Part shown: piece by piece, positions 12,170-34,059 of the stretch
Layout of the letters: each line of letters opens with the position of its first letter
How positions within the stretch are numbered: the stretch's first letter is position 1
Sequence record: NC_073064.1
DNA from: Escherichia phage vB_EcoS_PTXU06
Direction: 5' to 3' (one strand)
Length of the DNA stretch: 45,904 nucleotides
Notes under the pieces: model-generated
Databases searched by the model: none
What the model was told of the DNA's origin: nothing
Seen by the model: only the letters and a program-made list of their open reading frames with translations
Translations under genes and position numbers: made by a program

Positions 12170-13270
12170 ATGTCTTTAACAGTGTTCCAGCGTAAACTCG
12201 TTACCGCGGTTACGCAAATGATCCCCGACAACCTGAACGTTTTCAACGCCGCCGCCAATGGCGCTGTTGTTCTCGGTACTGGTGAAGTGCTGAAGGATGT
12301 TGTTGAGAAAATGTCCGTAGGCTTGATCGCCAACCTCGTTACCGACCGTAACGCCTACGCCCCTGTCGGCACTCCGGCAACCGCGAAAGTGCTGGCTCGT
12401 ATGCTGACCAACTCGGTTAACCTTTCCGCAAAAGTGGGTCCGGTAGCAATCACTAAGGCTATGATGGCTAAGATCGAAACCAACGTTAACAGCGTTGCGG
12501 CTGAGATTGCGGCACAGGCTACTCAAGCGATTATGCTGCACTACCTGAAAGCTGGTATCGGCGCAAGTAAAGCGGCGATCGAAAGCAACGCAGCGGCAAA
12601 ATACACCCAACCGGCGCGCGTTGACGGCGTTGGCGGTCGTACCTTCCCGACCCTGGCAGACTTCCCGCTGGCGGCTTCTAAGTTCGGCGATCAGGCGTCT
12701 TTAATTAAATCCTGGTTTATGGACGGCGTTACCTGGGCAAACTTCATTGCATACCAGGCGCTCCCGTCTGCCGAGCAGGTATTCGCAATCGGCGATCTGC
12801 AGGTAATGGGTGATGGCCTGGGCCGTCGTTTCATTATCTCCGATGCCGCTGCCGATGCTATGGGCACGGGTAACATGCTGGGTCTGGTCCCTGGCGCTGT
12901 TGCGGTTACCACCAACGGCCTTGATATGCTGGCGCAGGAAAAAGGCGGTAACGAGAACATCGAGCGCTGGTGGCAGGGTGAGTTCGACTTCAACGTGGCT
13001 GTTAAAGGCTACCGTCTGAAGGCGTCCGCTCGTACCCCGATCGAAGGTGTGCGCTCGTTCAAACTGAGCGATATCACCACCTCCGCGAACTGGGAACTGG
13101 ACCAGGGCCAGGTAGACAACGCACCGGCAACCGTTCAGGACGTTGGCGCTGTAGGCGATGGTGATACTAAAGGCCGTCGTAAGACACAGGCTGCTCAGGA
13201 AGTGCCGACCCGCAACATCAAGGAAACGGCTGGCGTACTGGTTACGCTGACGGCGACTACCGCGTCTTAA
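12170..13270 (+). CDS. major capsid protein
   Basis: 366 aa after the scaffold gene; followed by a strong terminator; positional and size call. Confidence 0.7.
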   Translation: MSLTVFQRKLVTAVTQMIPDNLNVFNAAANGAVVLGTGEVLKDVVEKMSVGLIANLVTDRNAYAPVGTPATAKVLARMLTNSVNLSAKVGPVAITKAMMAKIETNVNSVAAEIAAQATQAIMLHYLKAGIGASKAAIESNAAAKYTQPARVDGVGGRTFPTLADFPLAASKFGDQASLIKSWFMDGVTWANFIAYQALPSAEQVFAIGDLQVMGDGLGRRFIISDAAADAMGTGNMLGLVPGAVAVTTNGLDMLAQEKGGNENIERWWQGEFDFNVAVKGYRLKASARTPIEGVRSFKLSDITTSANWELDQGQVDNAPATVQDVGAVGDGDTKGRRKTQAAQEVPTRNIKETAGVLVTLTATTAS

Positions 13271-13288
13271 CGGGCGCACATCCCAAAG

Positions 13289-13313
13289 GGGCGGGCTTAT
13301 GCCCGCCTTTTTT
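13289..13313 (+). terminator. rho-independent terminator
   Basis: GGCGGGC-TTAT-GCCCGCC hairpin followed by TTTTTT. Confidence 0.65.
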
Positions 13314-14297: not shown

Positions 14298-14891
14298 GTG
14301 GCTGAAGTCTACTCATTCGCCGCCACTATTGCTACGTGGGTGGATAAGACGAAGGAGAACAACGATAAGGCGGTGCGGGCGTACGGTATGCAAATACTCG
14401 GACGCCTTATTGAGATCTCCCCGGTAGGCGACCCACGCCGGTGGAAGATTAACAAGGCTTACGCGCTTGCACGCGAACACGCGAACAAGGTGAACGCCGC
14501 ACAGCGCCGCAAGAATGGCGGCAAACTGAAGCGCGGGCAGAAGAAGCACGCCAGTGTGCTCATCTCATTCAAAACTAAAAACGGCAACGTCACGTTCCGC
14601 CAGCGTGGCTGGGCTGCGAAGAATTACACCGGCGGACGCTTCCGGGGAAACTGGCAGGTTACGTTCGACCGCCCAGCTGTAGGCGCTATTGACCGCGTGG
14701 ATAAGGCCGGAACGGCAACATTAGCCGCAGGGCGTGAAGTGCTGGCGCATTACGATTCCGGTGAATACGGGTCGATCTGGTTTACTAACAATGTGCCGTA
14801 TGCGCAGCGACTTGAGTATGGCTGGAGTAAACAAGCGCCCGCGGGGATTGTTCGCGTCGTAGCGGCAGAAATTAATTCGAAGGTGAAATAA
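14298..14891 (+). CDS. putative head-tail adaptor / tail completion protein
   Basis: 197 aa, GTG start with AAGGGG RBS; positional call. Confidence 0.45.
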   Translation: MAEVYSFAATIATWVDKTKENNDKAVRAYGMQILGRLIEISPVGDPRRWKINKAYALAREHANKVNAAQRRKNGGKLKRGQKKHASVLISFKTKNGNVTFRQRGWAAKNYTGGRFRGNWQVTFDRPAVGAIDRVDKAGTATLAAGREVLAHYDSGEYGSIWFTNNVPYAQRLEYGWSKQAPAGIVRVVAAEINSKVK

Positions 14892-15313
14892 TGAGCAATA
14901 CACTAATCCGCAAGGCGCTTAACAGCGTAGTTGAAGAATTAGCGGGGAGCCTGAGCACTAATCAGCGTCCGATCCAGGTTAACTGGGAGAACGTGAGCGG
15001 CGACCACGCTAACGGCAATGGTGTTTACCTGGAACCGTATCTGCTTCCGGCGCCGACCCAGTTTGTTGGCTTTCAGCAAAAAGGCCGGATCTATGCAGGC
15101 GTGTATCAGGTCGCTGTTGTGTTCCCCGCAGGCACTGGCACACAGTACGCGAGCGAACTGGCGGACGCCATCGCGACGTCGGATAAGTGGCAGGCGGTGA
15201 AGATTTACGGCGCTTCATTTCAGCTTCAGGACGCGCCATACACCAGTTCCGTGATTGAGGACGTCGATCGTGCTCGCATCGTGGTTACAGTCCCCTACAC
15301 CTGTTGCGCCTGA
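14891..15313 (+). CDS. putative tail terminator / completion protein
   Basis: 140 aa; ATGA-coupled to the upstream gene; immediately before the major tail gene. Confidence 0.45.
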   Translation: MSNTLIRKALNSVVEELAGSLSTNQRPIQVNWENVSGDHANGNGVYLEPYLLPAPTQFVGFQQKGRIYAGVYQVAVVFPAGTGTQYASELADAIATSDKWQAVKIYGASFQLQDAPYTSSVIEDVDRARIVVTVPYTCCA

Positions 15314-15373
15314 TTTGGCGCAATTCTGCGCGTGCTGTATCATTAAACCGTATATCTAAACAGGAGCGTCATT

Positions 15374-16099
15374 ATGGGTTATCAACTTCCTAACGGGTCC
15401 AGCGTGCAGATTGGGTCCGTACTGGGCAGCGGCATCGCTGTTACGGCAGCTACCAACGCCGCCGCATCTATCTCTGATCTTACGCAAGGTTGCGTAATTA
15501 CCTGCGCGGCTTCGCATGGTCTGGTGGTTGGCGACGTTGTTATGTTCACTAAAACCCCGTGGGTCCGAGCGCTTAACCGCGCATTCATCGTGGGTAAAGT
15601 GGACACCAACGACGTGACGCTGGCGCGCTTCGACACCTCGGACGTGACCAAATATCCTACCGGCGCGTTTGGGGTGGGCACTCCGGGCGAAGTGGTGAAG
15701 GTGTCTAACTTTATCGACTTTCCGTTTATCACTAACGTTGCCGTGTCGGGTGGCGACCAGCAGACGACTACCTTCCAGCCGTTGCAGGTGAACACAGCAA
15801 TCAGCCTGAACACCACGAAAAACCCGCTGGTCCAGACTTACACCTTCACCCACGACGAAGAAGACCCGATCCGCCCAATCCTGGAAGACCTGGACGATAC
15901 ACAGAAAACCACTGTGATTAAGTTCACTAACCCAGCGGCAGCAAGCGGCAAAGGTGAAATTCGTATTTACCCGGCGAAGGTATCCTTCCAGAAGATTCCG
16001 TCCGCTGAGGTAAACAACGTGGAAACGGTACAATCTACTCTGACCATGCAGTCAGATATGGTTATCTACCGTAAGGATCTGGTCGAGGCATTGTCTTGA
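15374..16099 (+). CDS. major tail protein
   Basis: 241 aa with strong RBS (ACAGGAG); lies between connector genes and the chaperone/tape-measure pair; followed by a terminator. Confidence 0.65.
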   Translation: MGYQLPNGSSVQIGSVLGSGIAVTAATNAAASISDLTQGCVITCAASHGLVVGDVVMFTKTPWVRALNRAFIVGKVDTNDVTLARFDTSDVTKYPTGAFGVGTPGEVVKVSNFIDFPFITNVAVSGGDQQTTTFQPLQVNTAISLNTTKNPLVQTYTFTHDEEDPIRPILEDLDDTQKTTVIKFTNPAAASGKGEIRIYPAKVSFQKIPSAEVNNVETVQSTLTMQSDMVIYRKDLVEALS

Positions 16100-16129
16100 T
16101 TTGGTCGCTTAAATAGCGAGTGATAATAT

Positions 16130-16152
16130 GGGGCCAGCACGGCCCCTTTTTA
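16130..16152 (+). terminator. rho-independent terminator
   Basis: GGGGCC-AGCAC-GGCCCC hairpin followed by TTTTT. Confidence 0.6.
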
Positions 16153-16167
16153 TTGGAGAATATTACG

Positions 16168-16530
16168 ATGGCTAAAGCACCACTCTTCACACTTGACCCT
16201 AAGCCAACCTTTAAGCTGCCGATTGAGATCCCGCGCCCTGGCGAGAACGAACCGGGCAAGATGACGTTTACCGTCCGCCACCGACCTATCGACGAGTTTT
16301 CGCAAACCATGCAGGACACCGAACGGAAGCTGTCTGAATATGACGACAATGACCCGGACGGCTTTAACGTTATGGTCGAGGCAATCATGCACGTCGCTGA
16401 AGGCTGGAATCTGCCGGACGAATTTAACGCGGAGAACGTCCGTCGCCTGGTGGTCAACTATCCACGCGCGTTCGGTGTGTTCCACACGTCGTACTATCTC
16501 GAACTGATGGGATTGCGTGAAAAAAACTAA
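16168..16530 (+). CDS. tail assembly chaperone (lambda G-like)
   Basis: 120 aa between major tail and tape measure; ends in a slippery heptamer; start at ATG 16168 with GGAG RBS (track start 16120 lies in the terminator). Confidence 0.65.
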   Translation: MAKAPLFTLDPKPTFKLPIEIPRPGENEPGKMTFTVRHRPIDEFSQTMQDTERKLSEYDDNDPDGFNVMVEAIMHVAEGWNLPDEFNAENVRRLVVNYPRAFGVFHTSYYLELMGLREKN

Positions 16531-16844
16531 TTGAGGCGGCGCGGCGCTTTTACGGCCCGCCGCCACCCTCTGAAGATTTAGCCGCGAGTTTATGGGGTGC
16601 GGCCCCCGAAGATGTTTGTCCGCCTGTTGCGCTATGGCCCGACAACGCGAAGATAGTCGCAGTCTTCACAGATTGCGCCACGCAATGGCGCACAGGATTT
16701 GGTGGCGCATACGGCATCGACTACGGCGTGTTGGAGTGGTTATTTAAGATGCACGGTATCGAAAACGAGCAGCGCGCGTTTAAAGATATCAAGCTAATGG
16801 AGCGAATCGCGCTTGATGAAATGGCGCAACAAAACCCCGCATAA
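16168..16844 (+). CDS. tail assembly chaperone frameshift product (G-T-like)
   Basis: The -1 frame is open from 16521 to the stop at 16842-16844 (about 107 codons) and contains W/G/Y-rich T-domain-like sequence; entry by -1 slip at A_AAA_AAC. Confidence 0.5.
16521..16564 (+). other. programmed -1 ribosomal frameshift signal (slippery heptamer plus downstream GC-rich hairpin)
   Basis: A_AAA_AAC at 16521-16527 in the zero frame of the chaperone; 7-nt spacer; GC-rich stem-loop GGCGGCGCGGCG...GGCCCGCCGCC at 16535-16564. Confidence 0.55.
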
Positions 16845-17160
16845 TGAAGCGGGACGTCCCGCTTTGTCCCGCCCTGTAAAACCGCATATCTAATCACTTT
16901 CATTGCATAAACTCAAAGCGGGACAGGCGGGACGTCCCGTTTTGTCCCACCACGCAAATGCGCATACCTATGCAGTTTTATTGCATAAAGTAAGCGGGAC
17001 AGAAAGCGGGACAGACAAGGGGCGGGACAAAGTGGGACAGCACCCCGTCCCCGCCAGTGCTGCCGCGGTTTTCAGCCGATCGGGACAGGCGGGACAAACC
17101 CCAGTCTTTCAGACTAGACGGGGGTCAGCGGTCCCCCTCGTCTGAGACTGAATAAGGTTT
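16845..17160. repeat. iteron cluster A: about 14 GCGGGACA boxes in both orientations plus a long imperfect palindrome
   Basis: Read directly; 374-bp non-coding gap between the chaperone stop and the tape-measure start; homologous to 45606-45790. Confidence 0.8.
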
Positions 17161-17218
17161 GTTTGAAATTCGCTGATACAATGACAGTCGGCAACTGCAT
17201 AAAAAAGGGGACTGCATA

Positions 17219-19861
17219 ATGGCAGATCAAGCAGCAGGCATCACGCTGAAGGCTGATGTTGCACAAATCAGAACGGCAAATACTGTGCTGGACTCCTTCG
17301 CACAGAAATCCGAGAACACAGAAAACAAGGTTAAGAAATTAAACGACACCCTCGGCAAATCCAAAAATGTGACGAGTGACGCCGCGGGCGGAATGGAGAA
17401 GCTGGCGACTGAATCGCAGCGTGCCGCCGACGGCATGACGAAACAAGAGCGACTTGCCAACCGGTTAGGCATGTCGACCAAAAACCTGGGCTTTGCCTCG
17501 CGTAACGCCGCATTCCAGTTACAGGATATTGCGGTTACGCTTGAGATGGGGATGCCATTGCACCGCGTTATGCTTCAGCAGTTACCACAGCTTACTGGGG
17601 CGTTCGGTGGATTTGGTAACACGCTGCGTTATGTTGCGGGCTTCCTCGGCCCGGTAGGGATCGGCATTGCGGCACTAACGGCAACGCTAGGCGTAGGGGT
17701 GGCGATTACGTCCCGCGCAGAAAACCAGGTCGCAGCGCTTAACAAGACGCTGGCGCTATCCGGTAATATCTCCGGCCTAACAGCTAACCAGATCCTGGTG
17801 TTATCGGAGAACGCCGAGCGCATGGGCGGATCATTCCGCAAGACGCGAGACACAATTCAGGCACTGGCGGCGGCGGGCGTGAAGGCGGGTGCTGACTTCG
17901 GCGCACTGGCTAAGACCGTTAATGACTTCGCGAAGGCGTCCAGCCAGCCGATCGAGGATGTGGTCGCGGCGGTAGCGAAGCTGTCTACAGACCCGGTAGG
18001 CGGCTTGCGAGCATTGGCTGATAAGTATCACGTCGTAAACGAAGCGCAGATCCGGCAGGTACAATCCCTGGTGGATATGGGTCGTGAGACTGAAGCGGTG
18101 GCGCTGGCTAATAAAACAGCCGCGGCGTCGTTCACCACCATGACCAACGATATTAAGTCCAACATGGGAACGCTCGAGCGGTCGATGAACATCGTCACAT
18201 CGGCAGCGAAATCTATGTGGGATGCCATCCTGGATGTTGGACGCGCGCAGTCCTCGAATGAGTCAGAGATGAAAGCGCGTGAATCATTGCAGCGACTGAC
18301 CACGGCTTACTATGCCGAGATGAAAGCGGTAAACGCTGCCGGTGGGGTGATGACCGAAGCGCAGAAAGCGCGTATTAACATGCTTTACAGCGAACTGGTA
18401 GCCCAGGAAAAAGTAGTGGCGTCGCTCACCCTGCGCAACCGTGCCGAGCGTGACAACGCCAACGCCGCGGAACAATCAGCGAAGGCGAACGAGGAGGCCA
18501 ACCGCACCGCGCGGGACCGCGCCGCGTTCGAGAAGGAGTACGCAACCAACGCGAAGAGGCGCGCCGACGAGATCGCCCGCCTCAATTTGCTTAATAAGCG
18601 CGGCGTGATTGACGAGAAAGAGCTTGCCGAGGCGGTGAAGCAGGTAAACGAGCGTTACAAAGACCCCGCCCCGAAGAAGGCCGCCGCCGTTCGAGTCGAT
18701 GCCGGGCTGAAAATGCTGGAGGTCGCACGGAGCGAACTGGCACAGCTTCGAGAATCCGGCAAGCAGATCGAGGCCAACTCTTCGACGCAGACCCGCACGC
18801 AACGAGCGCAAGCGGCCCTTAACAAGCTGATTGCCGACAACGAGCAGTTAATCGCTGCGAGCAAAGAAAGGGCGCTGACGGCAGCAGAGAAGCAGCAATT
18901 AGTCGAGTTCGGACGCGTGAAGGAAGTACGTGAGCAGATCGTCGAAGAAGCCAAATTGCTGGACGCGAAAGAGAAGCAGGTCAAGGCGCACGCGCAGATC
19001 GACGCCTTCGTTAAGAACCAGAACGCCGAGCTAAAAGCCACCGCGGCGGGCTATGCGCTTTCCACTCGCGAAGCGGCTAACCTGCGCGAAGAATTGCAGC
19101 TAATTGACCGCCTTAAGCGGGTGGGCGCTAGCGATACCGATATTGATCTGGCGGTGTCTAAGCTGCGCGAAGTGCAGGAAGCACAGACCGGTGCTAACGC
19201 CTCGCTATGGGATGGATTCAGCCGTGGGCTTAAGGATAGCGTGGATGAAATGGGTAACGGATATACGCAGATGGCGTCACTCACAAAATTCACGTTCGGC
19301 GCTATGCAGGACACGATGAACGAGTTTTTCGAGACTGGCAAGCTGAACGCAAAGGATATGGTTAAGTCCATCCTGAGCGAATTAATCAAGCTGGCTACAT
19401 CGCAGGCGTTCAAGTCCATCGTTAGCGCTTTCGGTGGCGACGGCGGCAAAAACGGATTGTTCGGCGCTATCTTCTCCGGCCTGACTAAGAATGCGGACGG
19501 CGGAGCGTACGCAGGGGGCAATCTCGCGGCCTATTCAGGGCAAGTGGTAAGCCAGCCAACCTTTTTCAGTTATGGCGTCCAGGCGTTCGCTAAGGGGGCA
19601 GGATTGATGGGGGAGGCTGGACCCGAGGCCATCATGCCGCTGAAGCGCGGGCCAGACGGGAAACTGGGCGTTGCCGCTGCCGGTGTAGGCGGGGGAATGA
19701 TTGTAACGACCAACGTTAACATGGGGACCGGTAAGACGGATACCAGTGTTAGCGGACCAGACCCGCGCACCGCGCAGGCGTTCGGGAAGCAAATCACCGA
19801 GTCGGTCAAGGCCGAGATCGTGAAGGCGACGAAACCGGGTGGTGTACTTTACAAACGATGA
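17219..19861 (+). CDS. tail tape measure protein
   Basis: 880 aa, long alpha-helical/coiled-coil character with Gly-rich C-terminal region; follows the chaperone pair. Confidence 0.85.
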   Translation: MADQAAGITLKADVAQIRTANTVLDSFAQKSENTENKVKKLNDTLGKSKNVTSDAAGGMEKLATESQRAADGMTKQERLANRLGMSTKNLGFASRNAAFQLQDIAVTLEMGMPLHRVMLQQLPQLTGAFGGFGNTLRYVAGFLGPVGIGIAALTATLGVGVAITSRAENQVAALNKTLALSGNISGLTANQILVLSENAERMGGSFRKTRDTIQALAAAGVKAGADFGALAKTVNDFAKASSQPIEDVVAAVAKLSTDPVGGLRALADKYHVVNEAQIRQVQSLVDMGRETEAVALANKTAAASFTTMTNDIKSNMGTLERSMNIVTSAAKSMWDAILDVGRAQSSNESEMKARESLQRLTTAYYAEMKAVNAAGGVMTEAQKARINMLYSELVAQEKVVASLTLRNRAERDNANAAEQSAKANEEANRTARDRAAFEKEYATNAKRRADEIARLNLLNKRGVIDEKELAEAVKQVNERYKDPAPKKAAAVRVDAGLKMLEVARSELAQLRESGKQIEANSSTQTRTQRAQAALNKLIADNEQLIAASKERALTAAEKQQLVEFGRVKEVREQIVEEAKLLDAKEKQVKAHAQIDAFVKNQNAELKATAAGYALSTREAANLREELQLIDRLKRVGASDTDIDLAVSKLREVQEAQTGANASLWDGFSRGLKDSVDEMGNGYTQMASLTKFTFGAMQDTMNEFFETGKLNAKDMVKSILSELIKLATSQAFKSIVSAFGGDGGKNGLFGAIFSGLTKNADGGAYAGGNLAAYSGQVVSQPTFFSYGVQAFAKGAGLMGEAGPEAIMPLKRGPDGKLGVAAAGVGGGMIVTTNVNMGTGKTDTSVSGPDPRTAQAFGKQITESVKAEIVKATKPGGVLYKR

Positions 19862-19868
19862 TAAAATG

Positions 19869-19896
19869 GCCCTCACTACAACGTGGGGGCTTTTTT
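19869..19896 (+). terminator. terminator / attenuator hairpin
   Basis: GCCCTCAC-TACAAC-GTGGGGGC hairpin followed by TTTTTT immediately before the next start codon. Confidence 0.45.
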
Positions 19897-20496
19897 ATGT
19901 CACAAGGTACAATCACACTAACGAAAGGAAGTAAGACCGTCACGGGCGCGGGGACGGCGTTCCTGAGCGAGATTGGGAAGGTCCGCGTATTTGCCCGCAT
20001 CGACGGCAACGACTACACCGGCAAAATTGCAGCATTCAACTCTAACACCGTCATCACCCTGGCGGATAACTGGGCAGGTCCGACAAAAGCCGGTGTGGCT
20101 TATGAGCTAATCGAAGCGCACGACCCGCGGTCAAACGAATGGCCCTATTACTGGCACATGCAATTGCAAGGCGGCGGGGACGTGCAGTTAGCTTTCCGGT
20201 CCGAGGAATTGCAATTTGGTAACGGTTACGGTCAGAACATCGCGGACGGCCCGAACGCCGAAACGAAACAGTTCCCCGTGCAATTCATCGGACTTACTAC
20301 TGACAAGTGGTGCAACCCTAAACTGGTTTACAACTTTCTTCGCGGTCACTTCGTCAAGCCGTTTGTTGTCACCGCGCCGGATGGCGAAACAGGTTTATTC
20401 GTGGTCGAGCGTTCGAGCTTGTCGTACACTGACAACGGGAACTACACGGCAACTGTGTCCGCCACCCTCAAGACTGCTATCGGATTTGTAAGATGA
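19897..20496 (+). CDS. minor tail protein (lambda M position)
   Basis: 199 aa directly after tape measure; N-terminal GTITLTKGSKTVTGAGTAF motif shared with the side tail fiber at 27312. Confidence 0.55.
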   Translation: MSQGTITLTKGSKTVTGAGTAFLSEIGKVRVFARIDGNDYTGKIAAFNSNTVITLADNWAGPTKAGVAYELIEAHDPRSNEWPYYWHMQLQGGGDVQLAFRSEELQFGNGYGQNIADGPNAETKQFPVQFIGLTTDKWCNPKLVYNFLRGHFVKPFVVTAPDGETGLFVVERSSLSYTDNGNYTATVSATLKTAIGFVR

Positions 20497-21281
20497 ATAA
20501 ATTATATCGTGAGGCGACGCGCTTTGATCCATCGGGTCGCGTTCGCCTGATTCACATTGACGCGCAGGACGTGGAACCAGGCGACGGTGCGATCGGCGCG
20601 GGCCATCACTATTTCCACTACTGCTTTATTCCGCACACTGCCGAGGATATTGCTGCCGCGGGCGGAGACGAGGACAAGCTAAAGCCAAAATCTATCTTCT
20701 TCGGCGGGCAGGAATTCGAATTCTGGCCCTTCGATTTGTCCGGCCTTAACTTCTCCACATCAACGGCAGCGGAACCGCAGCTAACCATCGTTGATATTGG
20801 CGGAATCATCACCCGGTTGTCGCTGAATCACGACCAGCTACTGGGCGCGAAGGTTGAAATAATCGACACGTTCGCGAAGTTCCTGGATAACGGGTCGGAT
20901 CCAGACCCGACGCAGAAACGAGTTCAGGAGTATTACATCGACTCGCAGGTTGGGCGCAATCCTGGCAAGCAAATCACCTTCGCACTATCCTCTCCTGCGG
21001 ATATGGAGGGGCAAGTAGTCCCCCGCCGCCAAATCATGAATATGTGCGAATGGGCGTTAAATGGGAAGTACGCCAGCGGGGACGGGTGCACCTGGAACCT
21101 TGCGAAGCCAGGTATCAAGTATTACGACGAGCGGGGTAATGAAGTCATCGCGATGAATATGGACCGATGCGGCGGATGCTTGTCGGACTGCTATCTTCGT
21201 TTTGGACAAGGTCTTGCAGACCCAAAAGCGGCGGTGCTGGACTTCGGCGGTTTTCCAGGGTCCAAATTAATTAAGGGGTAG
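20493..21281 (+). CDS. minor tail protein L-like
   Basis: 262 aa; C-terminal cysteine cluster (CGGCLSDC) as in Fe-S-binding lambda L proteins; position in the tail-tip operon. Confidence 0.7.
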   Translation: MNKLYREATRFDPSGRVRLIHIDAQDVEPGDGAIGAGHHYFHYCFIPHTAEDIAAAGGDEDKLKPKSIFFGGQEFEFWPFDLSGLNFSTSTAAEPQLTIVDIGGIITRLSLNHDQLLGAKVEIIDTFAKFLDNGSDPDPTQKRVQEYYIDSQVGRNPGKQITFALSSPADMEGQVVPRRQIMNMCEWALNGKYASGDGCTWNLAKPGIKYYDERGNEVIAMNMDRCGGCLSDCYLRFGQGLADPKAAVLDFGGFPGSKLIKG

Positions 21282-21283
21282 TC

Positions 21284-22024
21284 ATGCTAACGAAGAAGGT
21301 TAAACGCGATATCGCCGCACACGTTGCGGCATGTCTGCCGGAAGAAGCGTGCGGGCTGGTCGTCATGGTGGGCCGCAAACAAGTGTTTATCCCGTGCCTG
21401 AACGTGTTTGAAGACCCGACCGGCGTGCGCTCACGCAAAGACGCTTTCACGATTAGTGATATGGCCTGGATGGACGCCGAGGATATGGGCGACGTTGTGC
21501 GCGTAGTCCACTCGCACCCGGGTCAGCGCGAGCTAACCCCGTCATTGGGCGACGTTAATGGGTGCAACGGCAGCGGCGTCGTCTGGACCATCACTAACGA
21601 ATATGGCGACTTTATCGAGATCGACCCGGAAGACCCGCCGCTGGTAGGTCGCCGATTTGTTCTCGGAATTACGGATTGTTATGGCCTCGTTATGGATTGG
21701 CATAAAAAGCAGGGCGTAAACCTGCCAGACTTCCGTGTACCGTACAACTGGTGGGAGACAGGCGAAAACCTGTATATGGACAATTGGTATGGCGCTGGCT
21801 TCCGGGAGTGTGAGGAGAACACGCCGGGGGCGATGGTCATCATGCAGATTAGCGCGCCAGTGCCTAACCATGCCGGAATCTACCTTCCGGGCAACCAATT
21901 ACTACACCATATATACGGCAGCCTGTCTAGCGTGATCCCCTTCCGGGCGGGATTTTTCCGCGACAATGTGGTTAAATGGGTACGTCATAAAGACCTACCG
22001 GGGGATATCACAGAATGGCAATGA
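21284..22024 (+). CDS. tail assembly protein K-like (JAB/MPN plus NlpC/P60-like)
   Basis: 246 aa; HSHPGQRELTPSLGD matches the JAMM HxH...S..D metal-binding pattern. Confidence 0.7.
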   Translation: MLTKKVKRDIAAHVAACLPEEACGLVVMVGRKQVFIPCLNVFEDPTGVRSRKDAFTISDMAWMDAEDMGDVVRVVHSHPGQRELTPSLGDVNGCNGSGVVWTITNEYGDFIEIDPEDPPLVGRRFVLGITDCYGLVMDWHKKQGVNLPDFRVPYNWWETGENLYMDNWYGAGFRECEENTPGAMVIMQISAPVPNHAGIYLPGNQLLHHIYGSLSSVIPFRAGFFRDNVVKWVRHKDLPGDITEWQ

Positions 22025-22632
22025 CCACCTTTAAACTCTACGGCGTCTTAGGACGTCGTTTCGGTAAAGTGCATAAGCTGGACTGCTTCACGCCGGGCGA
22101 GGGTATCACCGGCCTGTGTGTGAAGTTACCAGGCCTACAGGACTTTTTAATGTCGGCCCACCTTGACAACATGATGTTCAAAGTGCGCAAGGGCAATCAC
22201 ACAATGACCGGCTACGATGAGCTGGGCGAGTTCCACGGCAACCGCGTAGTAACCATCGCCCCGGTTATGACTGGTGCAAAAAGCGGACTGGGCCAATTGC
22301 TGGCGGGTGTAGCAATCGTGGTGGCGTCGTTCTATACCGGCGGGCTTGCGACTGCCGCTTTCGGAGCTTCAGCGGCGACCGCGGCCTCTATTGGCGCAGC
22401 GACGTTTTCGTTCGGGATGTCTATGGCGCTGGGGGGCGTTATGCAATTGCTATCGCCGCAACCGAAAGGATTGCAGACACGGCAGGACGTGGATAACAAG
22501 GCGTCGTATGCGTTCGGCGGACCGGTAAACACGACCGCGCAAGGCACGGCACTTGGTGTATTATGGGGCGAACGTGAGATCGGCGGCGCTATTATTTCAG
22601 CCGGAATCGTAACAGAGGACTTGAACGAATGA
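22015..22632 (+). CDS. tail assembly protein I-like
   Basis: 205 aa; Gly/Ala-rich hydrophobic C-terminal half; position between K-like and J-like genes. Confidence 0.6.
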   Translation: MAMTTFKLYGVLGRRFGKVHKLDCFTPGEGITGLCVKLPGLQDFLMSAHLDNMMFKVRKGNHTMTGYDELGEFHGNRVVTIAPVMTGAKSGLGQLLAGVAIVVASFYTGGLATAAFGASAATAASIGAATFSFGMSMALGGVMQLLSPQPKGLQTRQDVDNKASYAFGGPVNTTAQGTALGVLWGEREIGGAIISAGIVTEDLNE

Positions 22633-25600
22633 CGATTATCTACGACGTCACTGGGCATAAAGGCGGCGGCGGCAAACAGCACACCCCGCAGGAGACGCCG
22701 GACAGCCTGCATTCGCTGGCTAAAATCCGCATCTTGCTTGCGCTGGGGGAAGGGGAGTTCGAAAGTATTACCAGCGCCAGCGAATTGCGGCAGCGAGTAT
22801 ATCTGGACGGCACGCCGATCCAGAACGCCGACCTGTCGGAAAACTTCCCCGGCGCGCGCGTGGAGTTCCGCCCAGGCACACAGCACCAGGACGTGATCCA
22901 CGGATTTTCAGCGGTAGAAAGCGAGCAGTCCGTCGGTGTAAAACTGGAAAACGGCACGCCGTGGGTGCGCCAGATTAATGACACCAGTCTTGACGCTGTG
23001 CGCATTCGAATCGGCATTCCGGCTTTGTACACCAACGAAGATAATGGCGACCTGGTGGGCGGGCGCATCGACTATAAAATCGTTGTGTACACCGATAACG
23101 CGGATCCGCGCGAGTTCAACTTCGCTGCCGTTGGTAAAACAATGTCGCTATATGAGCGCGACCACCGCATCGAATTACCGCCGAACGTGAATACCGGCTG
23201 GCGCGTGGAAGTTCACCGCACAACGGCAGATTCTACATCGGCGAAAGTGGTTAATGATATCCGGGTGCAATCCATCACTGAGATTATCGACGCCCGCCTG
23301 CGTTACCCGCTAACCGCGCTGTTGTTTGTGGAGTTCGACGCCAAAGCGTTCCAGAACATCCCGCGCGTGTCCATCAAGTGCAAAGGCCGCAAAGTTCTAA
23401 TACCGAACAACTACGACCCGATTAATCATACCTATTCCGGGGACTGGGATGGCACGTTCAAACGCGCATGGACGGATAACCCCGCGTGGCACTGGTACGA
23501 TATTTGTATTACTGAGCGCTTCGGCCTCGGTCGGCGTATCAAACCGCAAATGTTAAACCGGTACGCGCTCTACCAGATTGCGCAGCGCTGCGATCAGTTG
23601 GTCAGTGACGGCAACGGCGGGCGAGAAATCCGCTTTAAGAATGATATGTACATACAGTCGCAGACCGACGCCTGGACCGTGCTTAAGGATCTAGCTGCCA
23701 TCTTTGCCGGTATGACCTGGTGGGGAAACCAGATGTTGAATATCGTAAGTGACCAGCCGGTCGCAGCGGTATCGCACACTATCACCAACGCCTCGGTTAT
23801 TGATGGCAGATTTGACTACGCGTCAGGGAGCCAGAAAACCCGCTATTCCACGTTCGCGGTAGCATACGGCAACCCGAAAAACCACTATGATGACGCTATC
23901 GCAACGGGCCAGCGCGTCGAACTGGTGCGCCGCCATAAGATTAACCGTCTTGATATAACGGCGATCGGCTGTACGCGCGAATCTGAAGCGCAACGCCGCG
24001 GACACTGGGCGCTAATCTCCAACCAGTTGGACCAGCAGGTCAGCTTCAAGGTTGGCATGGAGGGGCTATTCTTTATTCCTGGTAGCGTAGTCGCGATCGC
24101 GGATACTAATATTTCCGGCGGATTCGAGACTCGCGGCGGTCGCCTGTTGTCAGACCCTGGCACGCGTACCGTGCTTAACACAGACAGCGAAATCACATTC
24201 CGCCCTGGTGATAAGTTCCTGGTGCGCACCGATAGCGGAAATGTGGAGACTCGCGAGATCGCCAGCGTCAACGGCAACAAGGTCACGCTAAAAACCGCAC
24301 TGGATGCCGACCCGATTCCAGACCAACCGTTTTGCGTTGATGGCGACGATATCCAGTTGCAAAAATTCCGCATCACCGATCTGGAGTATGACGACTCTAC
24401 GAGCACTTTCTCGGTGCGCGGGATTGAATACAACGATAGCAAATATGATGCCGTTGATAATGGCGCACGACTAGACCCGGGCATCTTTACGCAAGTGCCA
24501 GACGGGGTAATGAAGGGGCCGGAATCCGTGACCATCACCCCGTCGCAGATTTCATCGCAAGGACAGCTAATCACCAACGTGGATATTGTTTTCCCGCCGG
24601 TGAAAGATGCCGTTGTATACGAAATCCAGTGGCGACGTACCAGCTTGCAGAATATGGCAATCCAGTGGGGAAACGACTGGGTAAACATCCCCCGCACGGC
24701 ATCGAACGGCGCTCACATCCCAAATGTGTTTTCTGGTAACTACCAGGCCCGCGTCCGCGCGATCGGTATGGGCGAGATTTCATCCCCGTGGGTGGAGTCT
24801 GCCATCACGCCGGTAGAAGGTCGTCTCGGTGGGCTTAACGCGCCTATCATCACTAACGCGATTTCTGGCCTCCACCAGATTTTGTGGAAGTGGAACCATA
24901 ACAACGCCGCGACGGATATCTCTTACACCGAGCTTGAAGTGCGCAAGACTGGTGAAACGGAATGGAAATTTCTTACAAACGTCCCATATCCGGGGGCGGA
25001 GTATGCCCAAACGTCACTGGAGTTCGGGATCTATCAGCAGTTGCGCGCCCGTGTAGCGGATAAAATCGGCAACCTATCGGACTGGTCGGACCCGTTTGAA
25101 GGGCAGGTGAGTGACAAAGTTGACGAGTACATGAAGGGTCTTGATGACGAGTTCTTGACTTCCGAGGATGGTAAACGCTTCCAGGAAGCAATCGACACGA
25201 TCCCGCAGGGTATTTACGAGGCGATGCTCACCGACGCGCAGCAATTGTTCAACGCCCGCGCCGAGTACAAGGGTATTTATGCGGAAATCTCGGTCGCGTA
25301 TAACGTGGCGGCGGACGCCCACAAGGCGGTCGCCCAACTGGAGACGTTGATCGGCACGCGACTTGACGATGCGGAAGCGGCGATCCACACGTTGCAGACA
25401 GCGCAAAGCACGCACGAACAAGCGTTTGCCCAGTACCAGCAAACTGTTGCCGCTAAGTTCGGGGAACAGGAAGCCGCCATCCAGCAGGTGCAAACGGCAA
25501 CGGCAGACGTAGCGGGCGCGCTGGCGGAGTACAAGACCCAGGTCGCGGCACAGTTCGGTCAGCAGTCCGCCGCTATCGAGCAGAAGATGACGTCCACGTT

Positions 25601-26051
25601 TAACCATGCCGGTGGCAACGCCACATACCGCCTTAAGGCTGGCGTGACGTATAACGGGACTTACTACGATGCCGGTATGCAGCTTTCAGTTGTTGCGGAA
25701 GGTGGCGAGGTTAAATCCCGCATCGCGTTCAAGGCGGACCAGTTCTACATCATGCACCCATCTAACGGGTCGCTTTCGTCCGCGTTTATCGTGGACGGCG
25801 GCGCGGTGTATATTGACACGGCACGCATCAAGGACGCGACTATCAACTTCGCGCAGATCACGGACACGCTGCAATCGAATAACTATGACGGCTACTCGCG
25901 TGGCTGGCGCTTAGGGAAAGACGGAACGTTTATCAACCTGGGAACCGGTAACGGTGGCGGGGCGATGAAAATGACGAATGACACAATCAGCGTAAAGGAT
26001 TCTAACGGAGTTTTGCGAGTTCAGATTGGTAAAATCACGGGGGGTTGGTGA
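22629..26051 (+). CDS. host specificity protein J-like central tail fiber
   Basis: 1140 aa; N-terminus (HKGGGGKQHTPQE...) resembles lambda J-family proteins; terminal gene of the tail-tip operon. Confidence 0.85.
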   Translation: MTIIYDVTGHKGGGGKQHTPQETPDSLHSLAKIRILLALGEGEFESITSASELRQRVYLDGTPIQNADLSENFPGARVEFRPGTQHQDVIHGFSAVESEQSVGVKLENGTPWVRQINDTSLDAVRIRIGIPALYTNEDNGDLVGGRIDYKIVVYTDNADPREFNFAAVGKTMSLYERDHRIELPPNVNTGWRVEVHRTTADSTSAKVVNDIRVQSITEIIDARLRYPLTALLFVEFDAKAFQNIPRVSIKCKGRKVLIPNNYDPINHTYSGDWDGTFKRAWTDNPAWHWYDICITERFGLGRRIKPQMLNRYALYQIAQRCDQLVSDGNGGREIRFKNDMYIQSQTDAWTVLKDLAAIFAGMTWWGNQMLNIVSDQPVAAVSHTITNASVIDGRFDYASGSQKTRYSTFAVAYGNPKNHYDDAIATGQRVELVRRHKINRLDITAIGCTRESEAQRRGHWALISNQLDQQVSFKVGMEGLFFIPGSVVAIADTNISGGFETRGGRLLSDPGTRTVLNTDSEITFRPGDKFLVRTDSGNVETREIASVNGNKVTLKTALDADPIPDQPFCVDGDDIQLQKFRITDLEYDDSTSTFSVRGIEYNDSKYDAVDNGARLDPGIFTQVPDGVMKGPESVTITPSQISSQGQLITNVDIVFPPVKDAVVYEIQWRRTSLQNMAIQWGNDWVNIPRTASNGAHIPNVFSGNYQARVRAIGMGEISSPWVESAITPVEGRLGGLNAPIITNAISGLHQILWKWNHNNAATDISYTELEVRKTGETEWKFLTNVPYPGAEYAQTSLEFGIYQQLRARVADKIGNLSDWSDPFEGQVSDKVDEYMKGLDDEFLTSEDGKRFQEAIDTIPQGIYEAMLTDAQQLFNARAEYKGIYAEISVAYNVAADAHKAVAQLETLIGTRLDDAEAAIHTLQTAQSTHEQAFAQYQQTVAAKFGEQEAAIQQVQTATADVAGALAEYKTQVAAQFGQQSAAIEQKMTSTFNHAGGNATYRLKAGVTYNGTYYDAGMQLSVVAEGGEVKSRIAFKADQFYIMHPSNGSLSSAFIVDGGAVYIDTARIKDATINFAQITDTLQSNNYDGYSRGWRLGKDGTFINLGTGNGGGAMKMTNDTISVKDSNGVLRVQIGKITGGW

Positions 26052-31985: not shown

Positions 31986-32303
31986 TTACGCATAAAAATT
32001 CGGGTCGCGCGCGACGTCTACCAGATACAGGTTGCTGATTCGGTTGCCGTAGTGGCCTGGTGTTCGCTGGCGGCACACAACGGCGTAGCCTGGAGGAATT
32101 GTATTGCCGGTCGCGATAATCCACGCCACGCGTGCGCCCGATAGAGTTTTGCCGTTGCATTCGATGCGCGTGCCGCCATCGGCGGTATTGAGGTTGCCAA
32201 TTTTGCAGCCGGTGGACTTCAGACGAATGACGCCGGTTTTGCTGTCGTAGGAGAATAACTGGTTAGTCATTGCAACCGAAAAATCGATGGCTTCGAATGT
32301 CAT
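31986..32303 (-). CDS. HNH_3-like (homing-endonuclease-like) protein, possibly degenerate
   Basis: 105 aa; ARVAWIIATG and GNRISNLYLV resemble HNH_3 proteins but the canonical D-H is replaced (VCRQ); ATGA-coupled to the upstream methyltransferase-like gene. Confidence 0.4.
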   Translation of the reverse strand: MTFEAIDFSVAMTNQLFSYDSKTGVIRLKSTGCKIGNLNTADGGTRIECNGKTLSGARVAWIIATGNTIPPGYAVVCRQRTPGHYGNRISNLYLVDVARDPNFYA

Positions 32304-32995
32304 TTTAAATTTTCCTCGTTAACCGCTATCGCGAAGCCGCGCGGAGTGAGCGACCTGATTAATTTGGTGCGGGCAGATTTGCCTCCGAGGCGACTATACT
32401 GCTTCGAGTACCCTTTTTCAACGAATACAGGCTTTTTCTCTGGCATACGGAAGCCGTTGCCGGTCCATAAGCAGGTCAGCTTCGGATATGAATCACGGGC
32501 GTTGATGTATTCAGGGAATAGCGGGTGCACGTCATCCTCCGGCAAATAGCCGCCATACTCCCACGGGTCAAACGAGTGGTCAGGCTTACGCCATTGAGTG
32601 GAGAGCACGCTGCGCGGGTTCTCAATCAGATACGGCACTTCAAAGAAATCACCCAGGTAAGCGGCGATCTTCGCGGTGCGTACCGCCTTAAGCTGGAAGG
32701 CAGGGTCGCTGGCGCGTTTGCGCGGGAAAGCTGGCGCACCGCTAACCGCCAGATCCGTACACGGCGGGAATGCATAAATGATGTCCGGCGTGCCGAAATC
32801 ACCATTCATCGCACGGTCCACGAAGTCCAGATCGATAAACTCATTGCGATACCGGATTCCGCGACCATAAATCCGGTAGTCAAGGTAAGACCCGTGATCG
32901 GCTTCGGAGTAGTTGAAGCAATAACACTTATGCCCCATCTCGGCAGCACGCTCAATCATCAAGCCGCTGCCGTCGAACAATGACCAGATTATCAT
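32300..32995 (-). CDS. putative DNA (cytosine-5)-methyltransferase-like protein, copy 1
   Basis: 231 aa; LFDGSG (motif I-like), FPPC (motif IV-like catalytic Cys), LIENP (motif VI-like); unusually short for a C5 methyltransferase. Confidence 0.5.
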   Translation of the reverse strand: MIIWSLFDGSGLMIERAAEMGHKCYCFNYSEADHGSYLDYRIYGRGIRYRNEFIDLDFVDRAMNGDFGTPDIIYAFPPCTDLAVSGAPAFPRKRASDPAFQLKAVRTAKIAAYLGDFFEVPYLIENPRSVLSTQWRKPDHSFDPWEYGGYLPEDDVHPLFPEYINARDSYPKLTCLWTGNGFRMPEKKPVFVEKGYSKQYSRLGGKSARTKLIRSLTPRGFAIAVNEENLK

Positions 32996-33168
32996 TTGCG
33001 CGCCTTTTTAGCTTTCATGTATTCCATTAAATCATCCTGAATATCGCGCTTACTGTCGCGACGCTCGGCGACCAGTTCGTCCAGCGTCCCGCGAGCCTGG
33101 ATAATGTAGACGAATACGGGTCGAGGGTGTCCTGCTTGCATCTGGCGAACCGGCCCGATACGTTCAAC
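32992..33168 (-). pseudogene. duplicated 3' fragment of the helicase gene (last ~58 codons)
   Basis: Identical to 34056-34232; the 90-aa track ORF here is a junction chimera of the helicase C-terminus with out-of-frame sequence. Confidence 0.6.
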
Positions 33169-33367
33169 TGCCGGTCGCGATAATCCACGCCACGCGTGCG
33201 CCCGATAGAGTTTTGCCGTTGCATTCGATGCGCGTGCCGCCATCGGCGGTATTGAGGTTGCCAATTTTGCAGCCGGTGGACTTCAGACGAATGACGCCGG
33301 TTTTGCTGTCGTAGGAGAATAACTGGTTAGTCATTGCAACCGAAAAATCGATGGCTTCGAATGTCAT
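33169..33367 (-). pseudogene. truncated 5' copy of the HNH-like gene
   Basis: First ~64 codons identical to 31986-32303, then broken at the duplication junction. Confidence 0.55.
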
Positions 33368-34059
33368 TTTAAATTTTCCTCGTTAACCGCTATCGCGAAG
33401 CCGCGCGGAGTGAGCGACCTGATTAATTTGGTGCGGGCAGATTTGCCTCCGAGGCGACTATACTGCTTCGAGTACCCTTTTTCAACGAATACAGGCTTTT
33501 TCTCTGGCATACGGAAGCCGTTGCCGGTCCATAAGCAGGTCAGCTTCGGATATGAATCACGGGCGTTGATGTATTCAGGGAATAGCGGGTGCACGTCATC
33601 CTCCGGCAAATAGCCGCCATACTCCCACGGGTCAAACGAGTGGTCAGGCTTACGCCATTGAGTGGAGAGCACGCTGCGCGGGTTCTCAATCAGATACGGC
33701 ACTTCAAAGAAATCACCCAGGTAAGCGGCGATCTTCGCGGTGCGTACCGCCTTAAGCTGGAAGGCAGGGTCGCTGGCGCGTTTGCGCGGGAAAGCTGGCG
33801 CACCGCTAACCGCCAGATCCGTACACGGCGGGAATGCATAAATGATGTCCGGCGTGCCGAAATCACCATTCATCGCACGGTCCACGAAGTCCAGATCGAT
33901 AAACTCATTGCGATACCGGATTCCGCGACCATAAATCCGGTAGTCAAGGTAAGACCCGTGATCGGCTTCGGAGTAGTTGAAGCAATAACACTTATGCCCC
34001 ATCTCGGCAGCACGCTCAATCATCAAGCCGCTGCCGTCGAACAATGACCAGATTATCAT
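33364..34059 (-). CDS. putative DNA (cytosine-5)-methyltransferase-like protein, copy 2
   Basis: Translation identical to copy 1. Confidence 0.5.
   Translation of the reverse strand: MIIWSLFDGSGLMIERAAEMGHKCYCFNYSEADHGSYLDYRIYGRGIRYRNEFIDLDFVDRAMNGDFGTPDIIYAFPPCTDLAVSGAPAFPRKRASDPAFQLKAVRTAKIAAYLGDFFEVPYLIENPRSVLSTQWRKPDHSFDPWEYGGYLPEDDVHPLFPEYINARDSYPKLTCLWTGNGFRMPEKKPVFVEKGYSKQYSRLGGKSARTKLIRSLTPRGFAIAVNEENLK

Follow-up and report, generated by a model that had tools for sequence, protein, structure and literature searches.

A probable programmed −1 ribosomal frameshift between the tail assembly chaperone gene and a start-less DUF1799 frame in Escherichia phage vB_EcoS_PTXU06

The locus considered here belongs to vB_EcoS_PTXU06, a Dhillonvirus-type E. 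coli siphophage, and was analyzed within a stretch of 45.9 kb of its DNA, hereafter called the window. All the features described lie on the + strand unless otherwise indicated. The tail tube (major tail) protein gene (15374–16099; Pfam Phage_tail_3, E 1.6e-32) occupies the position of lambda V, and the tape measure protein gene (17219–19861; Pfam TMP_2, E 2.2e-43, and Tape_meas_lam_C, E 7e-14) occupies that of lambda H. Gene G (16168–16530) and the T segment (16527–16844), an extension in the −1 frame, are placed between them, in the lambda-like order U-V-G-T-H-M-L-K-I-J, and a repeat-rich gap of 374 nt lies between T and the tape measure gene. A pattern scan of the sequence located a terminator-like hairpin with a T-run (GGGGCC-AGCAC-GGCCCC, 16130–16156) in the interval from the tube gene to G; it probably lowers transcription into G, T and the tape measure gene.

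The product of gene G is a tail (tape measure) assembly chaperone of 120 aa, the function that the first-pass annotation had assigned to this open reading frame. Residues 1–120 of the protein matched the whole of the Pfam profile Phage_TAC_4 (PF08748; positions 1–124 of 124, E 1.4e-23) with 83.9 bits, against a gathering cut-off of 21.1, and the match to phrog_569 gave an E value of 1e-40. The mechanically called open reading frame starts further upstream, at GTG 16120 (136 aa). This start was rejected in favor of ATG 16168 because the Pfam profile is spanned end to end from the ATG, which has a Shine-Dalgarno sequence, GGAGA (16155–16159), 8 nt upstream, and because the GTG extension contains the terminator-like hairpin and all the records give a coding sequence of 363 nt, annotated also in SO-1, McMelon and UDS3lw.

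The T segment comprises 105 codons plus a TAA stop at 16842–16844. Its translation was compared with T-domain proteins, a check that the first-pass annotation had proposed, and it matched the Pfam family DUF1799 (PF08809) from T residue 23 onwards (E 6.8e-21; 74.7 bits versus a gathering cut-off of 26), as well as phrog_680 (E 3.5e-30). No Pfam family other than Phage_TAC_4 and DUF1799 was matched at E ≤ 0.1. In all the relatives examined, DUF1799 occupies the T position, and from the sequences it is concluded to be the positional T domain of the Phage_TAC_4 chaperone family. The predicted GT fusion (16168–16527 joined to 16527–16844) has 225 aa and covers phrog_17368 nearly end to end (positions 1–212 of 213, E 4e-32). 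It was matched by no NCBIfam model, and a sequence search of the PDB returned no solved relative of it. A search for homologous proteins with the fusion as the query was uninformative, as the only hits, two proteins with 58% identity, corresponded to G alone and none was fused. Concerning the possible initiation of T, there is no ATG, GTG or TTG in its frame for 67 codons, the first one being at 16728, and no Shine-Dalgarno motif for it before 16530.

The 3′ end of gene G reads CGT GAA AAA AAC TAA in the zero frame. The heptamer A_AAA_AAC (16521–16527), which has the X_XXY_YYZ phase in the G frame, is the candidate site for a −1 shift. It directly abuts the TAA stop that closes the 0 frame (16528–16530), and it is immediately preceded by a TGA that closes the −1 frame upstream (16518–16520), so that only the 7 nt of the heptamer can link both frames. 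The first T codon is CTA (Leu), formed by the last base of the heptamer and the first two bases of the TAA stop. The coordinates and phase of the heptamer, the GAA AAA AAC TAA ending of G and the −1 frame open for 107 codons from 16521 up to 16842–16844 had all been indicated by the first-pass annotation, and were borne out when the frames were read; the TGA at 16518–16520 and the late first start codon in T are two points that it did not contain. The heptamer overlaps an A7 homopolymer (16520–16526) that is invariant among the Dhillonvirus sequences. The heptamer string is not enriched in the window (4 copies versus 9.1 expected), and this site is the only in-frame X_XXY_YYZ of the window located at a gene end and preceding a long −1 frame without a start.

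After a spacer of 7 nt (16528–16534), the heptamer is followed by a GC-rich stem-loop (16535–16564), a candidate frameshift stimulator, which had been placed correctly beforehand and folds with −20.4 kcal/mol. It consists of a lower stem of 7 bp (GGCGGCG/CGCCGCC) plus 3 bp, with one bulge and a loop of 9 nt, and is among the two most stable 30-nt segments of the + strand of the window. When the EAARRFYGPPPP peptide was recoded synonymously, a stability equal to or greater than that of the window sequence was obtained in 5.9% of the trials (p = 0.06), the corresponding values being 28–36% for the commoner Dhillonvirus allele, in which G16544A breaks a pair. The folding z-score of the 80-nt region was only −1.2, and no covariation is possible in the stem because it is invariant within the Dhillonviruses. 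Among the relatives, pSf-2, Klebsiella K50 and Vibrio Baybae display hairpins of their own at the same spacing that beat their synonymous recodings (p ≤ 0.014), the Baybae hairpin being built from different codons and residues, while a comparable hairpin is absent in phiES15, ACG-M12, Jahat and L022. The Dhillonvirus hairpin is lineage-specific and is partly accounted for by Ala/Pro codons. The sequences do not clearly indicate selection on the hairpin as RNA, and its stimulatory role is only partly supported.

Other roles for elements around the site were considered. The stem-loop was rejected as an intrinsic terminator, since the T-run is missing after the stem and the pattern scan does not call it. 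Likewise, GGGA (16510–16513) was rejected as an upstream stimulator resembling a Shine-Dalgarno sequence, in the style of dnaX, because match and spacing are poor and positions 16512, 16513, 16515 and 16518 vary among relatives. An Rfam scan of 16000–17300 at E ≤ 1 yielded only sub-threshold miRNA/sRNA noise and no known frameshift element.

The selection acting on the region was analyzed with 19 unique Dhillonvirus sequences. The heptamer A_AAA_AAC is invariant in all 19, and the TGA of the −1 frame is present in 18, being missing in SECphi18 and in many distant relatives. The variable columns of G fall mostly on codon position 3 of frame 0 (78/94), and those of T on codon position 3 of frame −1 (72/104), a pattern which indicates that purifying selection switches from frame 0 to frame −1 at the heptamer. 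Superimposed on this, the minimum of synonymous variation in the 677-nt G-T region is at 16523–16562, coinciding with the heptamer and the stem-loop, where only 2 of 14 third positions vary, versus 66.5% overall (hypergeometric P = 5e-5). The invariant run at 16519–16541, spacer included, is the longest in G-T with 23 nt, followed by one of 11 nt. An extra constraint at the nucleotide level thus acts on heptamer, spacer and stem. In a second clade, the constraint is confined to positions −9 to +12 around the stop.

Beyond the Dhillonviruses, a canonical heptamer abuts the G stop in all 73 distinct junctions collected from IMG/VR (70 A_AAA_AAC and 3 G_GGA_AAC), its phase relative to the G frame being kept in every one, and an in-phase canonical heptamer abuts it in nine of ten diverse GenBank phages. 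The adjacency of heptamer and stop was found in T1-like, Cronobacter, Pseudomonas, Vibrio and Stenotrophomonas phages, and includes the heptamers G_GGA_AAC (Pseudomonas D14P, Vibrio Baybae, Stenotrophomonas CUB19 and the three IMG/VR contigs) and A_AAG_GGT (Jahat). The identity of the stop alternates between TAA, TGA and TAG across the family while its adjacency to the heptamer persists, and the slip site is kept across lineages with 30–45% protein identity. The junctions of the relatives are followed by a homologous −1 frame of about 103 codons. Amino acid conservation of T starts at the first codon after the slip (Leu1, Ala4, Tyr9), with Leu invariant at position 1.

Considering these data together, it is very probable (about 90%) that two tail assembly chaperones are initiated at a single start codon and differ by a programmed −1 ribosomal frameshift. 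The majority of ribosomes would terminate at the TAA after translating G (16168–16530), giving the chaperone of 120 aa. In a minority, the tRNA-Lys paired with AAA and the tRNA-Asn paired with AAC would shift by −1 on A_AAA_AAC and re-pair with AAA AAA, and translation would go on in the −1 frame up to 16844. The product would be a G-T fusion of 225 aa, in which ...LREKN|LIEAARRFY... marks the junction; both its synthesis and its abundance are predictions from the sequence. If the products act as in lambda, both would coat the tape measure protein, encoded by the next gene, through their G part, the tail tube protein would be recruited by the T part (DUF1799), and the slip frequency would set the low GT:G ratio needed for tail assembly. 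These roles are carried over by position and Pfam family only, since there is no detectable similarity to lambda G/T. In lambda, a G:GT ratio of about 30:1 is required (PMC5009743), and reporter assays at two prophage tail chaperone sites gave 6–7% frameshifting (PMC3711429). In E. coli, slippage on A_AAA_AAC is far weaker than on A_AAA_AAG (PMC5009743); this weak site is probably lifted to a useful rate by the hairpin that follows after 7 nt, and the stop abutting the heptamer possibly raises the slip rate as well.

Several other explanations of the same junction were weighed. That nothing is programmed, the open −1 frame being the outcome of a homopolymer sequencing or assembly error, of a decaying gene or of chance, can practically be discarded. 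It is true that some sequencing chemistries are prone to errors at A7 runs and that the heptamer string is not enriched in the window, but the same A7 and frame relation recurs in 157 independently sequenced phage records with 85–97% identity, distant relatives carry heptamers that are not homopolymers, and the −1 frame encodes a Pfam domain under purifying selection. It is also highly improbable that T is a separate gene with a start of its own, either at ATT 16530–16532 or at an internal GTG or ATG (16728, 16749), with no fusion being made. Public annotation leans this way: SO-1 gp16 is annotated from ATT, starting on the last base of the gp15 stop; the records of McMelon, SECphi18, Jahat and phiES15 call short open reading frames from internal starts; and phrog_14875 is a family of 38 residues consisting of such 3′ fragments. 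However, to the lack of usual start codons and of a Shine-Dalgarno motif described above, it must be added that the conservation of Leu1, Ala4 and Tyr9, which extends across phyla of hosts, and the start of the DUF1799 match precede the internal starts (codons 68 and 75), that the −1 phase and the heptamer, kept in all the relatives, would be unneeded for independent initiation, and that the fusion matches a full-length PHROG.

Two further explanations lead to a fused product by another route. For transcriptional slippage to be efficient in E. coli, a run of about nine bases or more is usually necessary. It is very unlikely that the RNA polymerase, by stuttering on the A7 run and adding one A, is the main source of the fusion, which would then carry Lys for Asn at the junction (...REKK|LIEAA). 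The run is present and invariant, and one added base opens the same frame as a −1 shift; besides, frame transitions repeatedly carry poly-A motifs, and some bacterial and IS genes make use of transcriptional slippage (PMC5009743, PMC3711429). Nevertheless, the relatives with G_GGA_AAC or A_AAG_GGT are without a homopolymer long enough and yet obey the tandem-tRNA motif X_XXY_YYZ, which argues for ribosomal rather than transcriptional slippage, and the constant phase of the heptamer relative to the G frame matters to ribosomes and not to RNA polymerase. Transcriptional slippage may make a minor contribution alongside the ribosomal shift. As to the stop codon, 'shifty stops' are well established in E. 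coli, and the same product as by tandem slippage could arise by the slip of a single tRNA: the peptidyl-tRNA-Asn in the P site would move −1 onto AAA while a stop that is decoded slowly (TAA/TGA) occupies the A site, CTA (Leu) being read next, with the stop and not the hairpin as the main stimulator. The abutment of heptamer and stop throughout the family while the identity of the stop drifts, the many relatives that keep both without a hairpin, and the invariant runs spanning about −9 to +12/+14 around the stop in two clades are in favor of this explanation, and lambda offers a contrast, its slip site lying 16 nt before the stop. On the other hand, the full X_XXY_YYZ is conserved, including the first triplet (A_AA, G_GG and the A_AA of A_AAG_GGT), as predicted by tandem slippage, whereas a slip confined to the P site would need just the last four bases; and the adjacency may be merely inherited, as the N-terminus of T (Leu-x-x-Ala) and the C-terminus of G are both conserved. 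On balance, slippage of a single tRNA assisted by the stop seems rather unlikely.

A programmed −1 ribosomal frameshift at this position can be compared with known systems, in the first place with the −1 G/G-T frameshift of lambda (Levin, Hendrix & Casjens 1993; Xu, Hendrix & Duda 2004, 2013, 2014, as cited in PMC5009743). Following the definition of the G/GT frameshift of long-tailed dsDNA phages by Xu et al. 2004, the locus has the gene position, the start-less −1 frame (with a 7-nt overlap), the in-phase conserved heptamer and the coding downstream frame. Shared with lambda are two open reading frames between tube (V) and tape measure (H) genes, the second one start-less and in −1, an X_XXY_YYZ heptamer in the 3′ terminal part of the first one, and collinear homologs of U, V, H, M, L, K, I and J. 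In contrast, the slip site of lambda is G_GGA_AAG, apart from the G stop instead of abutting it; the strong GC hairpin after the heptamer is a feature of PTXU06 unlike lambda; and lambda T overlaps H, whereas the 374 nt between T and the tape measure gene are non-coding here. BLASTP of the GT fusion versus lambda GT revealed no detectable similarity (best E = 1.1). So, the match to the conserved lambda-like G/G-T frameshift that the first-pass annotation had claimed holds for the architecture and the Pfam chaperone family, not as lambda orthology.

True homologs, with the same Pfam families, occur in T1-like Drexlerviridae (pSf-2, tunzivis, Jahat, ACG-M12), in Klebsiella phages of the Webervirus type and in Cronobacter phiES15. 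Their T domains are 30–46% identical to that of PTXU06, and they share a G end formed by heptamer and stop, mostly A_AAA_AAC TAA, and a −1 frame of about 103–107 codons before the tape measure gene. They differ in the downstream structure, which is different or absent, and they are without the GGGAC repeat region present in PTXU06, T ending 30–50 nt before the tape measure gene or overlapping it. In another phage genus, ORF23 and ORF22 of the Edwardsiella ictaluri phage eiAU, 38% and 48% identical to SO-1 gp15 and gp16, respectively, were proposed in 2011 as a conserved tail-assembly frameshift pair between the major tail and tape measure genes (PMC3025963); this was a prediction only (FrameD), with slip site and stimulator not described. 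Outside phages, dnaX of E. coli shares an A-rich heptamer read by tRNA-Lys and a stable stem-loop a few nt downstream (PMC5009743). However, the dnaX heptamer is A_AAA_AAG and has an upstream element resembling a Shine-Dalgarno sequence, which is not conserved at the PTXU06 site, where Z is C (Asn codon), a much less shifty combination in E. coli (PMC5009743); the efficiency expected here is a few percent, versus about 50% for dnaX.

Taking the Phage_TAC_4/DUF1799 family as a whole, we tentatively suggest, while thinking it somewhat doubtful, that the abutting stop could be an obligatory part of the recoding signal. The G:GT ratio would then depend on a 'shifty-stop' cassette, R_RRA_AAC_TRA plus about 10 invariant nt after it, with little need for a downstream RNA structure, and the hairpin would have been added in the Dhillonvirus lineage alone to compensate for the weak A_AAA_AAC. 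If true, this would be a variant of signal architecture and not a new kind of system.

The kind of signal is already known, both from lambda G/GT and from the proposal made in 2011 for the eiAU homologs (PMC3025963). A literature search on Dhillonvirus and frameshift did not find a paper on the G-T site, the hit that was examined dealing with an escape mutation that is unrelated to it, and a joined G-T coding sequence is annotated in none of the 16 records of relatives examined, including the RefSeq entries of SO-1 and SECphi18. In public records, T appears from an ATT start, as 'hypothetical proteins' of 30–60 aa, or is omitted, and the PHROG name of both halves is 'tail length tape measure protein'. 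The main value of the finding is for annotation: with G and G-T called correctly, about 150 Dhillonvirus genomes and many T1-like ones could be mended, and families that are spurious, like phrog_14875, would disappear. For the mechanism the value is modest; the phages form a clean natural series in which to see how a weak slip site is tuned in E. coli phages to the few percent required for tail assembly, with the core of heptamer plus stop common to all members and the hairpin present or absent. Finally, two open reading frames of the minus strand (16150–16566 and 16550–16717), one of which is annotated in SECphi18, were rejected as genes and read as shadows of G/T, because the substitutions track the frames of the + strand.

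The chaperone gene of the zero frame (G) was read directly at 16168-16530: it starts with ATG at 16168, with GGAGA 8 nt 5′ of the start, encodes 120 amino acids and ends, as the first-pass annotation had it, with GAA AAA AAC TAA (stop at 16528-16530). In the junction sequence, ...CGT GAA AAA AAC TAA TTG AGG CGG..., the heptamer A_AAA_AAC occupies 16521-16527 as claimed, in X_XXY_YYZ phase relative to the G frame. The -1 frame, described as open for about 107 codons, counts exactly 107 from 16521 to the TAA at 16842-16844. Since a TGA stands in that frame at 16518-16520, the heptamer is the only stretch, seven bases long, over which frames 0 and -1 are both open. The first ATG, GTG or TTG of the -1 ORF comes at 16728. 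The heptamer string is not enriched in the window (4 copies versus 9.1 expected), and among the + strand ORFs of at least 100 amino acids this is the sole in-frame gene-end heptamer with a long, start-less -1 ORF behind it. The GC-rich stem-loop proposed at 16535-16564 has a stem of 7+3 bp, a loop of 9 nt and a folding energy of -20.4 kcal/mol, and starts 7 nt past the heptamer. When the whole window was analyzed in 30-nt windows, its stability was equalled at one other + strand site only, 13283-13312. The latter (GGGGCGGGC-TTAT-GCCCGCC, then TTTTTT) is terminator-like and lies directly 3′ of the ORF at 12170-13270, probably the major capsid gene.

G matched Pfam Phage_TAC_4 from end to end (E 1.4e-23), and the -1 frame, once translated and compared with known families, yielded a product (T) that matched DUF1799 (E 6.8e-21). 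In PHROGs, G fell in phrog_569 and T in phrog_680, while the conceptual G-T fusion spanned positions 1-212 of the 213 of phrog_17368 (E 4e-32), so full-length fused homologs are present in that library. The label of these three families, 'tail length tape measure protein', is misleading, and phrog_14875 (38 aa) consists of the T 3′ end, with an internal ATG (window 16749) taken as its start. No NCBIfam model matched the G-T fusion, a PDB sequence search gave no solved relative, and a large protein search with the fusion gave two matches, both G-only; an Rfam scan of 16000-17300 found no known frameshift element.

The surrounding gene arrangement is lambda-like, with the tail terminator at 14891-15313 (Pfam Phage_tail_terminator_5), the tail tube protein at 15374-16099 (Phage_tail_3), the G and T ORFs at 16168-16844 (Phage_TAC_4 and DUF1799), the tape measure protein at 17219-19861 (TMP_2 and Tape_meas_lam_C), and, at 19858-26051, lambda M, L, K and J homologs plus an unassigned ORF where I would be expected. 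BLASTP detected no similarity to lambda G or T in either half (best E 1.1), so the kinship with lambda is architectural and at the Pfam level of chaperone type, not orthology. The site represents the tail-assembly frameshift that Xu, Hendrix and Duda (2004) described as conserved, with the difference that the slip site of lambda is 16 nt before the G stop, whereas in Phage_TAC_4/DUF1799 pairs it touches the stop.

That T continues G was examined in 19 unique Dhillonvirus G-T sequences, 84–97% identical. Of the 94 variable columns in G, 78 were at codon position 3 of frame 0, and of the 104 in T, 72 were at position 3 of frame -1; this substitution pattern indicates that purifying selection changes frame, from 0 to -1, at the heptamer. 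In a T-domain alignment of ten lineages, 29–46% identical to the window T, conservation starts at the first post-slip residue (Leu1, Ala4, Tyr9, then TQWR and G..G.DY), far 5′ of any possible internal start. In IMG/VR contigs with G 42–56% identical, G ends with GAA AAA AAC T[AG]A and a -1 ORF of ~103 codons follows. With the T-domain alignment as query, 73 distinct junctions were recovered, all 73 with a canonical in-phase heptamer touching the stop (A_AAA_AAC in 70, G_GGA_AAC in 3; TGA in 54, TAA in 19). The G end was also inspected in ten diverse GenBank phages. A_AAA_AAC plus stop occurs in the T1-like or Klebsiella phages pSf-2, tunzivis, ACG-M12 and Klebsiella K50 and in Cronobacter phiES15, G_GGA_AAC plus stop in Pseudomonas D14P, Vibrio Baybae and Stenotrophomonas CUB19, and A_AAG_GGT plus TAA in Jahat. 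Only Enterobacter ST22 lacks a canonical heptamer. Its G ends with CTG CGC CAA AAG CCC TGA (stop at locus position 702); frames 0 and -1 overlap over 25 nt, and the DUF1799 ORF of frame -1 is normal. The shift may occur there on CAA_AAG, as an A-site-only slip, or via another route.

RNA polymerase might in theory insert an extra A at the run of seven A, but the relatives with G_GGA_AAC or A_AAG_GGT keep the tandem-slippage rule without a homopolymer, and the heptamer phase relative to the G frame, which is meaningful for ribosomes only, is conserved. Both features favour -1 ribosomal frameshifting, with transcriptional slippage as a possible minor contributor. Contact between slip site and G stop (73 of 73 surveyed junctions, nine of the ten diverse phages) may be a matter of inheritance only, or may reflect a variant mechanism, considered rather unlikely, in which a pause at the abutting stop promotes the slip. 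A consequence of the contact is that the first T codon is Z+T[AG], always Leu.

With -1 ribosomal frameshifting as the preferred reading, most ribosomes would complete G, while a few percent would slip on A_AAA_AAC to give the 225-aa G-T, with the junction ...LREKN-LIEAARRFY.... The anatomy of the first step is seen in the sequence; the later steps are transferred from lambda. G and the G part of G-T would attach to the product of the downstream tape measure gene, the T part would recruit the tube protein, and slip frequency would fix the G:G-T ratio. G and G-T have been described as chaperones absent from virions, in a ratio set by slip frequency (PMC5009743), and two prophage tail-chaperone sites gave 6–7% in reporter tests (PMC3711429).

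In favour of a stimulatory role of the hairpin, the minimum of synonymous variation in the 677-nt G-T region is exactly 16523-16562, with 2 of 14 third positions variable versus 66.5% overall (hypergeometric P = 5e-5), and the longest invariant run is 16519-16541 (23 nt; next longest, 11 nt). The 7-nt spacing from the heptamer is textbook. pSf-2 (p = 0.014), Klebsiella K50 (p < 0.001) and Vibrio Baybae (p = 0.001) each carry a hairpin of their own, equally spaced from the heptamer and more stable than synonymous recodings, that of Baybae being built from other codons and residues. Against such a role, the window stem consists of Ala (GCG GCG) and Pro (CCG CCG CC) codons, and 5.9% of synonymous recodings of the peptide were at least as stable; with G16544A, a synonymous change that is the commoner Dhillonvirus allele, one pair is lost and the figure becomes an unremarkable 28–36%. 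Several relatives lack a comparable downstream structure, and in a second clade (35 sequences) the extra constraint is limited to about -9 to +12 around the stop. We conclude that the conserved core of the signal is the heptamer, the stop and about 10 nt, and lean slightly towards the hairpin as a predicted, lineage-specific enhancer of the slip. Such a role is plausible, given that in E. coli A_AAA_AAC slips far less readily than A_AAA_AAG (PMC5009743). An SD-like stimulator farther 5′ was rejected, as its bases vary among relatives.

The window site is an unannotated case of a well-known frameshift and is not surprising; its value lies in annotation and in a tidy comparative series. Homologs of SO-1 gp15/gp16, the counterparts of G and T in that Dhillonvirus phage, were already identified as a frameshift pair in the eiAU paper of 2011 (PMC3025963), and no paper on this site in Dhillonvirus was found. 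The fetched records of relatives do not show the G-T frameshift: SO-1 gp16 is given an ATT start that shares the final base of the gp15 stop; McMelon, SECphi18, Jahat, phiES15 and others have calls for short pieces inside T or for ORFs on the other strand; and T is left out in UDS3lw and tunzivis. In SECphi18, G carries the label 'major tail protein', and a shadow ORF is entered on the minus strand. Even in the lambda RefSeq copy, T has a CDS entry of its own.

A megablast search of the GenBank phages with 15300-17300 gave 157 records at 85–97% identity, nearly all from Escherichia/Shigella Dhillonvirus (SO-1, HK578, EP23, BASEL phages and others). A terminator-like hairpin at 16130-16156 (GGGGCC-AGCAC-GGCCCC, then TTTTTATT), which lies after the stop of the tube gene and before the start of G, probably attenuates transcription into G, T and the tape measure gene; in the CS16 record, a 'terminator' feature is given under the region of the match. 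The 374-nt gap from the T stop to the tape measure start (16845-17218), without counterpart in lambda and the T1-like relatives, looks non-coding; small ORFs are called inside it in some records. It is rich in GGGAC/GTCCC motifs, with 11 CGGGACR sites over both strands, a 63-nt direct repeat (16849-16911 and 16927-16989, 81%) as well as several inverted repeats; it may serve as a protein-binding array, as an origin or as a regulatory site. The SO-1 record has a repeat_region feature, 'region A ... similarity with region B', on the homologous stretch, and a second CGGGACR cluster at 45633-45733 (7 sites in 100 nt) is probably 'region B'. A perfect 1064-bp tandem duplication at 32105-34232 (32105-33168 versus 33169-34232, 100% identical) doubles a 152-aa ORF (32525-32983 and 33589-34047) and makes up most of the difference in length from the ~44.8 kb typical of Dhillonvirus genomes; the duplication could have occurred very recently or could stem from the assembly. 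In layout, the nearest genome may be that of Escherichia phage vB_EcoS_Zar3M (OM262541.1; 45,901 bp), of nearly the same length, whose G-T match lies at 16168-16843, yet with a listed identity of 89.9% over 676/677 bases.
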